Source: Escherichia phage EC.P1
DNA: 64,000 nucleotides
Sequence record: PQ657772.1
Strand: one strand, 5' to 3'
The notes under the pieces are model-generated. The model was given only the letters and a program-made list of their open reading frames with translations, did not search any database and was not told where the DNA came from. Below, piece by piece: positions 53,337 through 55,881 of this stretch; positions within the stretch are counted from its first letter, which is position 1; every line of letters begins with the position of its first letter. Position numbers and translations under genes: made by a program.

Positions 53337-53792
53337 TTAATTGAACTCGATTTCTGGATAATGATTATAGAACATCTCACGTACTGCGTCAAGCTGTTCT
53401 TTAAATTTCTCAATGTCATCAAGAGTTAGTACAGTGTTACTAACTGTACTCAACTGAAAAAGTGCCTCTTCAGTACTGTTTTCTGATAAATCAAATGTAC
53501 ATGATGAATCATCTGTTATAATATTATCACATATTTCAAATGTGTCAATATGAACATCATTGAGTAGATCACCACTATAATCATTATATATGAACACAAA
53601 AATGTATGATGGTTTTTTTATCTCAGTTTCTGACTCATAGGCTACCAAATCATATGTTACGTAACATTTAAAGTCAGGTGAATCGTATTCCATAGATACA
53701 ATTCCTATATCACGATATTGATTCGCTTCACTGATTAAATCCGGTATAGGTGTAATACTAAGTAAATGGAAAAACTGTCCTGGATTTAGCAT
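53337..53792 (-). CDS. FQS-motif family protein
   Basis: 151 aa; ..NSTEEALFQLSTVSNT.. Confidence 0.6.
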   Translation of the reverse strand: MLNPGQFFHLLSITPIPDLISEANQYRDIGIVSMEYDSPDFKCYVTYDLVAYESETEIKKPSYIFVFIYNDYSGDLLNDVHIDTFEICDNIITDDSSCTFDLSENSTEEALFQLSTVSNTVLTLDDIEKFKEQLDAVREMFYNHYPEIEFN

Positions 53793-54241
53793 TTGATTAC
53801 CTTCGGGTTTTGCTCTGTGATATCAAACATAGATAGAACGAAATCATTTAGATTTTCAACACAATTGATTATAGTGCTTAAATCAGAATAACTAACTGTT
53901 AAATTTTTAACAAGAGATTCCTGAAAGTATCCTTCTTCAGTTGAGCAATAACTCACATTTGAGATAGTCTCATAATGTATATCTTTGCTTGTTTTACATG
54001 TTATAATTTCTATTATATCCGATGTTGTGTTATATAATAATATAAATGTTGTTGTTCGTGAATTCTTATTGTAAAATGCGAGTTCAGTGCTGTCATATGT
54101 TTTCTCAATAAGAACATTGTACTCTTCCGAAAACGATGTGGAAATTCTAATTATCTCTTCTGGTTCAGGAACATAAGATCCATCAAATTTACAAGACAAT
54201 GCAATTTCAAAATGATTTTTTATTTCATCAATTTTCATCAT
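53786..54241 (-). CDS. FQS-motif family protein
   Basis: 151 aa; ..CSTEEGYFQESLVKNL.. Confidence 0.6.
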   Translation of the reverse strand: MMKIDEIKNHFEIALSCKFDGSYVPEPEEIIRISTSFSEEYNVLIEKTYDSTELAFYNKNSRTTTFILLYNTTSDIIEIITCKTSKDIHYETISNVSYCSTEEGYFQESLVKNLTVSYSDLSTIINCVENLNDFVLSMFDITEQNPKVIKC

Positions 54242-54633
54242 AGCTCACCATTTAATTTGCTATTTACATATTCTAATGCTTTTTTAACAATGCCAATTTC
54301 TGTAACTCCTATTACATTTTTCTCGATTAACGACAATTGAAATAGTTCATCTTCCTCAATATCAATACTATGGGTTCTTGACCAATAAACGTTGAAGTCA
54401 TATGCATATCGTATTGTATTTTCTTTAATATCAAGTACCAATATAACCATACCATTGTGTAGGTATGTCAGTGTTTTTCCGTATATATTAAAAATTAACC
54501 TATCTGGTGTACCCAATGGAAGATGAATTATATTTTGTGTAGTTCCAACAATAACAAAATCATTATCTATATTTTTATTCAAGTCACCTAGAATGTCATA
54601 TATAGTAGTCATGTTAATCTTGACCCTCAGCAT
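54238..54633 (-). CDS. FQS-motif family protein
   Basis: 131 aa; ..IEEDELFQLSLIEKN.. Confidence 0.6.
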   Translation of the reverse strand: MLRVKINMTTIYDILGDLNKNIDNDFVIVGTTQNIIHLPLGTPDRLIFNIYGKTLTYLHNGMVILVLDIKENTIRYAYDFNVYWSRTHSIDIEEDELFQLSLIEKNVIGVTEIGIVKKALEYVNSKLNGEL

Positions 54634-55033
54634 TTCTGATGATTCGCATTACTTCTCTGGATACGTTGTATACTTTTTTATAGTACTCAAATGTAACTGA
54701 ACCAAAATCATTAACCGTACTATCCATGAAGAACGATTCTTCGGTGCAATACACACCTGTAATTGAAACATGCTCATGATGGAATTTAGCATCTTTCCAG
54801 TAACGGAATTCGAAAATAAATTGCCCGTCATGACCAACCCTACAACACTCAGCACGGTCACTGTCTACGCAGCTAATCACAATATCCCTTTCGGAGTCAT
54901 ACCAGATATTTCCAATATTTGTTTCAATAACTGCATAATCAATTTTTGTAGAATTGGGAATTACACCTTTTTTTACCAGTACTAGACTGGTATTATCAAT
55001 ATCAAGTAAACTTACCATATCAACTCCCCACAA
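54614..55033 (-). CDS. FQS-motif family protein (FM variant)
   Basis: 139 aa; ..CTEESFFMDSTVNDFG.. Confidence 0.6.
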   Translation of the reverse strand: MWGVDMVSLLDIDNTSLVLVKKGVIPNSTKIDYAVIETNIGNIWYDSERDIVISCVDSDRAECCRVGHDGQFIFEFRYWKDAKFHHEHVSITGVYCTEESFFMDSTVNDFGSVTFEYYKKVYNVSREVMRIIRNAEGQD

Positions 55034-55430
55034 TTACTGTGTTTTTAATTTCTAACAATTCACTATACATCTTCTTCAATTGTACAATATCTTCATATAA
55101 AATACCACCCATATCATCAATCAAAGAACGTTGGAATAGTGATTCATCTGACTGTATCGTGTCCAAATCAGAAATTTTCAATACTGTAACTGGGTTTAGG
55201 GTGTTTACAATAAGTTTGTTTGTGTATGGTATGTATGTGATCTTGATATTCATTTCCGAATCAAGGGCATACAACCTCAAAACAGACAAATCACCACAAA
55301 GTTGGATTTTTGGTTCATCAAACTCATCAGACCACCACATAGTACTAGTCATATAATTGACGTGTTGGTTCAAATGTGATATATCCAAATCGAAATAATA
55401 TTTTAGTTCATTGTGTAAATCTAAACTCAT
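55020..55430 (-). CDS. FQS-motif family protein
   Basis: 136 aa; ..IQSDESLFQRSLIDDMG.. Confidence 0.6.
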   Translation of the reverse strand: MSLDLHNELKYYFDLDISHLNQHVNYMTSTMWWSDEFDEPKIQLCGDLSVLRLYALDSEMNIKITYIPYTNKLIVNTLNPVTVLKISDLDTIQSDESLFQRSLIDDMGGILYEDIVQLKKMYSELLEIKNTVIVGS

Positions 55431-55485
55431 AAATTTATCCTCTATGCATCATTATCTTACAGTGTAGGATAAACCCACGATAATG

Positions 55486-55881
55486 TCAAGATGTGAATTG
55501 CTTATACCAGTGATACAGTTCTTTCAATTCTTCAGTACTGAATAGAACATCTTCAATCGTTGTTTGTTGGAAGTGGTAATCTTCATTTAAGTACATTGAA
55601 ATATTTTTATATACTTTTCGATTACATTTCCCAAGAAATGATGTTCTTTTGGATGTATATTCAATAAATGTTAACTTATCTAATTCTACATCCAATGACA
55701 ATTTCATACAGTATTCAGTATCATCTACGTACATAAGTTTATTTGAATAACAATCAACTGTGATATATTCTTTATGTGAGAATTGGTATATACCATTAAA
55801 TTTTTTACCATTTGTACTTCTGAATTTTTCAAGGTAATAAGAGAGTGGTTTAGATATTGTACTACCAATAGTATTATTCAT
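55486..55881 (-). CDS. FQS-motif family protein
   Basis: 131 aa; ..NEDYHFQQTTIEDVL.. Confidence 0.6.
   Translation of the reverse strand: MNNTIGSTISKPLSYYLEKFRSTNGKKFNGIYQFSHKEYITVDCYSNKLMYVDDTEYCMKLSLDVELDKLTFIEYTSKRTSFLGKCNRKVYKNISMYLNEDYHFQQTTIEDVLFSTEELKELYHWYKQFTS

Follow-up and report, generated by a model that had tools for sequence, protein, structure and literature searches.

Paralogous gene arrays have so far been mentioned only in passing in jumbo phages, one report coming from the genus considered here (Hua et al., 2017); these papers spend one sentence each on the matter and neither define a family nor describe a motif, a structure or the evolution of the copies. Here we examine six consecutive genes at positions 53337 to 55881 of a 64,000-nucleotide stretch of Escherichia phage EC.P1 (PQ657772.1; the whole stretch is referred to as the window), which a first-pass annotation had described as a tandem array of a single protein family, the FQS family. 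No paper describing this family, whether by definition, motif, structure or evolutionary analysis, was found in the literature. Its copies are not 'very similar', as the earlier papers put it for their arrays: the best pairs share 35-44% identity, and most share about 16-20%.

Several better known systems resemble the locus in part. The multigene families MGF110, MGF360 and MGF505 of African swine fever virus (ASFV), the host-range families of poxviruses and their gene 'accordions' likewise consist of dozens of tandem copies of small uncharacterised proteins, and like them the FQS family gains and loses copies between close strains and changes rapidly in sequence. The FQS family, however, belongs to a bacteriophage and has no sequence or fold kinship with these proteins. 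The SUKH immunity superfamily (SMI1/KNR4, Syd) reportedly forms tandem 'polyimmunity' arrays, also in DNA viruses. Its members are said to be small alpha+beta proteins, proposed binders, in head-to-tail arrays of diverged paralogs, as here; the FQS family gave no match to SUKH, SMI1-KNR4 or Syd profiles or structures. With the anti-restriction DNA mimics Ocr, ArdA and Arn, five of the six array proteins share small size and strong acidity, and no such mimic was found by sequence profile or among the structural matches. Finally, the hyperplastic or early clusters of T4-type phages also have many small genes without known function lined up on one strand after consensus sigma-70 promoters, with tight or overlapping junctions, scattered tRNAs, an HNH endonuclease and a gene content that varies between relatives, but no single family dominates them, whereas here one family provides about 20 of the approximately 145 genes in the window.

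The source of the window is an Asteriusvirus, a RaK2-like jumbo myovirus of about 350 kb. The 3.1 kb around the array are 99.7% identical to Escherichia phage WPEC3, 97.7-99.6% identical to eight further coliphages, and 80-85% identical to 121Q (about 83%), PBECO4, phAPEC6 and other Asteriusvirus. G+C content is 31-38% across the full length of the window, and the minus strand carries nearly all of its genes.

The six open reading frames (ORFs) are present precisely at the positions first given, and were all found on the minus strand, so that the array reads from 55881 down to 53337; we number the genes g1 to g6 in this direction (Table 1). An explanation as ORF artefacts was ruled out by ratios of nonsynonymous to synonymous substitution (dN/dS) below 1 (0.16-0.51 in comparison with 121Q), by orthologs annotated in more than 30 phage genomes, and by the same annotated gene order in 121Q (gp83-88, g1 corresponding to gp83), UE-S1, phAPEC6 (gp127c-132c) and WPEC3. 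The most diverged of the six relative to 121Q is g5, at 48% amino acid identity. Neither DNA-level tandem repeats nor an Rfam match were detected in the array.

Kinship among the six proteins is well beyond chance. A leave-one-out hidden Markov model (HMM) recovered each of them at E-values between 1.4e-5 and 2.1e-8 among the 261 ORFs of the window, while the best non-member had an E-value of at least 0.008. Some 30-40 residues before the C-terminus, all six carry the motif [ST]-E-E-x-x-F-Q-x-S-[TL]-[IV], with F-M-D-S in place of F-Q-x-S in g3; the broader form [ST]-E-E-x-x-[FY]-Q/M-x-S-[TL]-[IV] fits all six. The conserved parts (motif and helices) are C-terminal, and the N-termini are not conserved. 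The array as first described is thus a real set of six relatives, but it is not a closed family unit: iterated HMM searches identified 19-21 members in the window, about 14 of them outside the array, including the nearby genes 56647..57075 and 50780..51292.

For a genome-wide census we used TH47 (MT446416.1), a complete but unannotated 352-kb assembly that is 97.7% identical to the window. There, 57 ORFs match the family HMM and all 57 contain the motif, which amounts to about 9% of the genes if compared with the 618 annotated features of 121Q. Most members (32) lie within 53.5-81.4 kb, 21 in the part equivalent to the window, and 4 elsewhere. The group of 32 forms a near-continuous cluster over 28 kb (53,537-81,425), in which some neighbouring copies are visibly related (33-41% identity at 69.1-70.9 kb, 44% at 71.1-72.3 kb). 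It is very probably the 121Q array mentioned by Hua et al. (2017). The same expansion extends to the six-gene array, an outlying part of it. Directly after the cluster, at 81,659-87,364 and with a further part at 67,033-67,224, TH47 has a second tandem family of 18 small ORFs (63-92 aa, 28-52% identity, motif [FL]-L-G-T-N-Y-Q-E). By plain BLAST clustering, no paralog group in this genome is larger.

The family is narrowly distributed. Searched exhaustively with the family profile, 1.84 billion cluster representatives yielded only 124 proteins at E <= 1e-3, all of 60-190 aa and with a median isoelectric point (pI) of 4.71; 118 of them bear a motif-like string. A profile search through a word-indexed database gave only 29 close relatives, and an IMG/VR scan for relatives with a single protein gave none. 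BFVD contained structural neighbours only among uncharacterised proteins of the phages RaK2, GAP32, CBB and Yersinia fHe-Yen9. The family therefore seems to be confined to RaK2-like jumbo phages. Among 116 of the matching representatives that were aligned, one also has a strong RecQ-1-like helix-turn-helix Pfam hit (PF21220, E 3.7e-12) and may be either a fusion or a false family member. Family proteins are mostly acidic, with a median pI of 4.64 and 74% of members below pI 5, versus 28% of background ORFs. In the array this holds for five of the six proteins (pI 4.05-4.9, net charge -7 to -23), and g1 is neutral.

Named homologs were not found in Pfam (queried with the six proteins and with 135 aligned members), NCBIfam, PADLOC or a profile search of the PDB, in which PI3K matches (E 0.35-1) were noise. 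PHROGs contributed only groups of unknown function and spreads the six array genes over six different ones.

The array is old, and its paralogs had already diverged when Asteriusvirus and Alcyoneusvirus separated, as judged from gene order and sequence divergence. All six genes occur in the same order in 121Q and UE-S1 (48-83% protein identity), in the metagenomic contig L015 (45-66%) and in A4 (28-39%), and RaK2 keeps equivalents of g2-g5, lacking those of g1 and g6. Because they are one-to-one positional orthologs across these lineages, any duplication predates the lineages, and the sequences no longer give any sign of a local origin. The first-pass annotation had suggested local duplication and diversification, with copy-number variation to be looked for at the homologous locus; the homology and the extreme divergence of the six genes stand, but no variation in the number of the six was seen within Asteriusvirus, and the neighbours are no closer to each other than to distant copies. 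Pairwise identity among members in the window is 5-35%. Over the HMM match columns, the six proteins are 16.0% identical among themselves versus 17.0% to the other 51 members of the complete TH47 genome, and 3512 of 5000 random six-member sets (70%) were at least as similar as the array. The closest array-mate ranks only 6th to 21st, depending on the gene, and the best BLAST paralog is a non-neighbour in every case.

Tandem duplication does operate in the family, though not visibly within the six-gene array. Across the genome, adjacent family members are on average more alike than non-adjacent ones (0.433 versus 0.279 BLOSUM62 units per column), and pairs in which the neighbour is the closest relative were found at 69128-70947 and 71131/71818 in TH47 and at 36462/36814 in the window (35% identity). 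Copy number is polymorphic between phages that are about 97% identical: TH47 has an extra member at 157208..157612 (134 aa), which the window has lost by a 333-bp deletion (TH47 157,268-157,600) that left the last 19 codons. The likeness of adjacent members and the neighbour-closest pairs elsewhere, together with the adjacency and homology of the six genes, are what speaks for a recent tandem duplication at the array site followed by rapid diversification. The within-array similarities given above, the lack of DNA-level repeats and the positional orthologs in A4 (about 30% identity) and three further lineages make such an event very unlikely. Recent local duplication is thus largely refuted by the sequence comparisons, and an ancient local origin is neither demonstrable nor excludable with the signal that remains.

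A further property sets the array apart from its surroundings. In three independent comparisons it stands out as an island of fast evolution with sharp borders: its proteins share 45-66% identity with those of L015, where the flanking proteins (56647, 56039, 53062 and Dcm) are 92-99% identical; the corresponding values are 28-39% versus 69-94% for A4, and 48-83% versus 76-96% for 121Q. The conserved flanks have a dN/dS of 0.05-0.12 relative to 121Q, lower than that of the array genes, and synonymous divergence is alike in both. The difference is therefore one of constraint, that is, of purifying but relaxed selection. Members outside the array (56647, 50780 and 50328) are much more conserved, so that fast change is a trait of the island and not of the family. 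The island also tolerates insertions. In both A4 (locus positions 6837-7247) and RaK2 (6840-7253), a gene for a PTH2 peptidyl-tRNA hydrolase (PF01981; E 2.5e-18 and 8.5e-16) lies between the equivalents of g3 and g4, and RaK2 has in addition an unrelated membrane-protein gene inside the array. PTH2 is absent from the window and from the entire TH47 genome.

Table 1. Coordinates of the array genes, of predicted signals around them and of further FQS family members in the window. E for g1-g6 is the leave-one-out HMM E-value; 'HMM' marks members assigned by the family HMM.
Feature	Coordinates	Strand	Details
g1	55486..55881	-	131 aa, pI 6.8; first array gene, separate unit from g2-g6; E 1.6e-6
g2	55020..55430	-	136 aa, pI 4.4; first of the plausibly coupled five-gene block; E 3.4e-8; ortholog 121Q gp84
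g3	54614..55018	-	134 aa, pI 4.9; start moved from TTG 55033 to ATG 55018; E 2.6e-8
g4	54238..54612	-	124 aa, pI 4.8; start moved from ATG 54633 to 54612; E 1.4e-5
g5	53786..54241	-	150-151 aa, pI 4.5; start 54241 (ATGA overlap) or 54238 (TGATG); E 2.1e-8
g6	53337..53792	-	151 aa, pI 4.05, net charge -23; last array gene; E 2.4e-7
Intrinsic-terminator-like hairpin TGCCCCGACCTTCGGGGCA with T-run	55900..55927	-	from scan; hairpin part 55927..55909, 8 pairs, 6 of them G-C, then TTTTTCTT
Sigma-70-like promoter TTGACA-17-TACACT	55461..55489	-	in g1/g2 gap; consensus match
Sigma-70-like promoter TTGACG-17-TATAAT (11/12)	53364..53392	-	within the 3' end of g6; the next gene (53322) follows after 42 nt
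Conserved leader element TTATCA-18-CATAAT with CCTCCC	55983..56017	-	upstream of hairpin; candidate weak promoter or regulatory element
Family member	56647..57075	-	142 aa; two genes upstream of the array; slow-evolving, 87-94% identity in relatives
Family member	50780..51292	-	170 aa; downstream of the array
Family member	50328..50783	-	151 aa; HMM
Family member	49505..49948	-	147 aa; HMM
Family member	43608..44114	-	168 aa, basic (pI 9.3); HMM
Probable family member	43207..43611	-	134 aa, motif EEEFQYNLL; E 2.5e-4
Family member	40611..40976	-	121 aa; HMM
Family member	39846..40223	-	125 aa; borderline leave-one-out E 0.035, motif present
Family member	36814..37230	-	138 aa; closest paralog is the neighbour 36462..36821 (35% identity), the one clear tandem pair of the window
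Family member	36462..36821	-	119 aa; HMM
Family member	35316..35792	-	158 aa; HMM
Family member	34836..35285	-	149 aa; just downstream of the site (about 35296..35304) where TH47 has an extra member
Family member	20544..21059	-	171 aa; HMM
Family member	14573..15145	-	190 aa, basic (pI 9.3); HMM

The junctions between the genes had been described as overlaps of mostly 7-20 nt; they actually range from a 55-nt gap (g1/g2) to a 7-nt overlap (g5/g6, ATGCTAA, kept in 121Q and L015), with 1-nt spacers at g2/g3 (TGAtATG) and g3/g4 (TAAcATG) and a 4-nt ATGA overlap, or alternatively a 1-nt one (TGATG), at g4/g5. Overlaps of 14 and 20 nt had resulted from taking the longest ORF (TTG 55033 and ATG 54633). 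The internal starts at 55018 and 54612 are backed by PHROG profile alignments, Shine-Dalgarno (SD) positions and the annotations of 121Q and UE-S1. For g3, the PHROG alignment leaves out the first five residues of the long ORF and begins at residue 6, the corrected start has GGGGAG at a distance of 5 nt before it, and gp85 of 121Q has 405 nt; for g4, the alignment begins at residue 8 of the long ORF, and the junction TAAcATG is kept in 121Q and L015. Each of the six genes is preceded by its own SD sequence, which in the case of g1 is GAGG, 5 nt before the ATG.

Translational coupling across all six genes, with co-expression in fixed ratios as its presumed consequence, had been proposed from this arrangement. 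The tight, conserved junctions make coupling plausible for g2-g6, which lie on the same strand with stops and starts within 1-7 nt and an SD sequence each, a geometry kept in 121Q and also in L015, where the proteins are only 45-66% identical. Coupling does not extend to g1, which is set apart by the 55 nt of the g1/g2 gap and the sigma-70-like promoter therein. In the surrounding 9 kb of 121Q, 15 of 22 junctions are equally tight, and close packing is therefore a habit of the genome and not peculiar to the array.

Transcription of the array was considered in the context of the whole window, where consensus sigma-70 promoters are unusually dense. The minus strand has 37 sigma-70-like sites with at least 11 of 12 matches, 12 of them perfect (TTGACA-N16-18-TATAAT), and every one points the same way as the genes; on the plus strand no site reaches this threshold, and block shuffles yield 2.2 sites with at least 11 matches and 0.1 perfect ones. 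At a threshold of 10 of 12 matches, 30 of 70 sites fall into intergenic DNA, which makes up 12.6% of the window. Such density and co-orientation are the signature of an early region transcribed by host RNA polymerase. In the related phage CBB, RpoD-like promoters have been located in a region of short hypothetical ORFs (PMC5259590).

The predicted promoter at 55461..55489 in the g1/g2 gap reads TTGACA-17-TACAAT in 121Q and TTGACA-17-TAAAAT in UE-S1, and is likely to be the start of a g2-g6 transcript. Transcription would probably run on from there into the genes 53322..53062 and 53022..52732 and the Dcm methyltransferase gene. The first-pass annotation had closed the array with a terminator. 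The hairpin in question (55927..55909) is real, is a good candidate for an intrinsic terminator on the minus strand and is kept in 121Q, UE-S1 and A4, and the leader folds with z = -3.6, but it is located 27 nt upstream of the g1 start codon. Instead of closing the array it precedes it, and so marks the end of the unit before (56039..56590). No comparable site was detected by the scan directly after g6, the next on the minus strand being a weak one at 51938..51920.

Upstream of the hairpin, the intergenic DNA contains a conserved minus-strand element, TTTCCTCCCTTACATAATAAT (within 55983-56103). On the plus strand it reads AAGGGAGGAAAGTAAC-ATG, a strong SD sequence before a hydrophobic ORF of 30 aa at 56011..56103 (MIMLTITGIIIYHLILLIELVYHQKVYGFS), which is antisense to the end of 56039..56590 and whose A4 counterpart would have only 11 aa. 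On the minus-strand RNA, CCUCC could serve as an anti-SD sequence for g1.

We used AlphaFold2 to model the structure of g2 from a family alignment of 135 sequences, with a mean predicted local distance difference test (pLDDT) score of 94.7 and a predicted template modelling (pTM) score of 0.86. In the model, a helix (residues 5-13) is followed by seven strands in an antiparallel meander (21-86), a short helix with the motif (95-102) and a long helix (112-135). For g1 the model is of low confidence (pLDDT 58.6), and its C-terminal half has the same order of elements (helix, strands, two helices). A Foldseek search of the PDB gave nothing at E <= 1e-3. The known fold family used for comparison was p32/gC1qBP/MAM33 (PDB 1P32, 3RPX, 7TE3 and, from Leishmania, 1YQF). 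The p32 protein (1P32) is acidic, consists of a helix, seven strands and two helices, and is an obligate trimer in the shape of a doughnut. The modelled g2 fold appears to resemble it weakly and in topology only. Homology to p32/MAM33 was rejected at the level of sequence: none of the 135 members matches the MAM33 Pfam model, and hhalign against human p32 (query sequence checked against 1P32) gave a probability of 0.2%.

Taken together, we favour an explanation in which the locus is an early operon of ancient paralogs that encode non-virion, host-directed binders. Its anatomical and evolutionary part is near certain; the functional part is tentative, somewhat short of an even chance, and the explanation as a whole is about evenly poised. 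The locus would be one stretch of the early region transcribed by host RNA polymerase, presumably expressed early. Its six paralogs, which diverged long ago, belong to a phage-specific family whose products are small (120-190 aa) and for the most part acidic. Transcription of g1 would proceed through, or past, the upstream hairpin, and g2-g6 would be carried by one message that starts at their own sigma-70-like promoter and runs into the downstream genes, with translation from abutting or overlapping stop and start codons. The products may be non-enzymatic binding proteins of early infection. Consistent with a non-virion role, the orthologs gp127c-132c are absent from the table of 62 virion proteins of phAPEC6 (PMC7247149). 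The C-terminal helices and the motif would form a common scaffold, and the fast-changing sheet and loops would confer specificity, each copy binding a different host target, for example one involved in takeover or anti-defence. Different targets for different copies would explain why a 57-copy family is kept, why change is 5-10 times faster in the island than in its flanks, and why unrelated accessory genes (PTH2, in A4 and RaK2) enter and leave it; rapid change and turnover of accessory genes would then represent adaptation to hosts.

A related and bolder proposal would see the family as a repertoire of small, acidic and diversified binding proteins, used in early infection to neutralise a range of host factors or defence systems, and as a bacteriophage counterpart of the ASFV and poxvirus multigene families. 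The EExxFQxS helix hairpin would then be a scaffold or shared docking site, and the seven-stranded sheet the variable recognition surface. We regard this as possible but unlikely. Defence or anti-defence matches were not obtained in PADLOC, Pfam or NCBIfam, none of which is a dedicated anti-defence library.

Several observations weigh against host-directed binders encoded by an early operon. Homology pointing to a function, a binding partner or a time of expression was not found in Pfam, PHROGs, NCBIfam, PADLOC or the PDB profile search. Conservation in g2 differs mildly between strands (0.59) and helices (0.68-0.75), which is weak support for a division into scaffold and variable surface, and the N-terminal half of g1 has no confident model. 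Acidity is not universal, as two members in the window are basic (pI 9.3). All six genes have a dN/dS below 1, and their fast change could reflect weak constraint alone instead of diversifying selection. The promoter calls, finally, are consensus matches only.

Among the alternatives, the most substantial is that a single hetero-oligomer is built from all six proteins, or from g2-g6, for example as mixed p32-like rings, with subunit ratios set by translational coupling. Gene order and junctions (1-nt, 1-nt, ATGA, ATGCTAA) are indeed kept in 121Q, UE-S1 and L015 despite protein identities of only 45-83%, the conserved C-terminal helices of all six could form a common interface, and the weak topological likeness is to a protein that is itself an obligate trimer. 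We nevertheless find it improbable. Family members also occur singly or in arrays of other sizes, and RaK2 dispenses with the equivalents of g1 and g6 and accommodates a membrane protein and PTH2 within its array. Subunits of a complex usually co-evolve slowly, whereas the array is the fastest-changing stretch of the region, and tight junctions are the rule around it (15 of 22 in 9 kb), each gene having its own SD sequence.

Two further alternatives are less credible even than the recent local duplication discussed above. Small, acidic, polymorphic proteins in a T4-related phage recall the internal proteins of T4 such as IPI, and the array proteins might accordingly be packaged in the virion and injected with the DNA, to act against host restriction at entry. 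This is highly improbable, given that the phAPEC6 virion table, with its 62 proteins, does not list the orthologs, that the conserved motif is C-terminal and no conserved N-terminal targeting sequence exists, and that the genes lie amid consensus sigma-70 promoters and not late promoters. The motif itself, in the form E-E-x-[FYL]-F-Q-x-S, has a formal likeness to the cleavage sites of glutamine-specific proteases of the 3C/TEV type (E-x-x-Y-x-Q/S for TEV, L-F-Q/G for 3C, cleavage at the slash) and is nearly invariant in 57 paralogs, which could mean that the family consists of protease substrates or decoys. Of all the alternatives we give this one the least credence: in the g2 model the motif starts a helix, judging from the DSSP string, and would be a poor protease substrate, the P1' position is variable, and no such protease was seen in the window, where only the Pfam scans of the family and its neighbours bear on the matter.

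The neighbourhood of the array has some features of its own. Between the family member 56647..57075 and the array lies a minus-strand gene (56039..56590, 183 aa) that is 69-92% conserved in relatives. It has a faint NCBIfam match to the model of the SecY-interacting protein Syd (E 0.005, 16 bits versus a cutoff of 153), a member of the SUKH superfamily, and a faint PADLOC match to PtuB (E 0.015), both of which are probably noise. Downstream of the array, the Dcm methyltransferase gene of the window (51819..52679) has 861 nt, and TH47 has about 1 kb extra (176,067-177,095) at the point corresponding to 52447/52448. In UE-S1 (locus positions 800-2680) and A4 (9357-11255) the Dcm gene likewise exceeds that of the window by about 1 kb (1881-1899 nt), and residues 1-120 and 424-632 of the A4 protein match the two halves of the window protein. 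This suggests that the longer versions contain an inserted element, for example an intein or a mobile domain. Further away, at 34000-41000, the WPEC3 annotation (locus positions 3046-8002) places tRNA genes (Thr, Met and three for Ser) and a gene for a NUMOD4/HNH homing endonuclease between the small early genes and the family members.

The array itself is an ordinary, old and compact early operon; what is noteworthy is the family behind it and the hypervariable island that it forms. Most jumbo phage genes have no known role. About one gene in 11 of this phage belongs to one family that the databases do not name and that PHROGs splits into many unrelated groups; once it is recognised as a unit, with its motif, a confident model and a map across the genome, some 57 'hypothetical proteins' per genome become a single tractable question. 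The six-gene island, which changes fast, keeps its gene order and junctions and tolerates accessory insertions, is a natural starting point for asking how these phages, which are candidates for therapy, handle E. coli.

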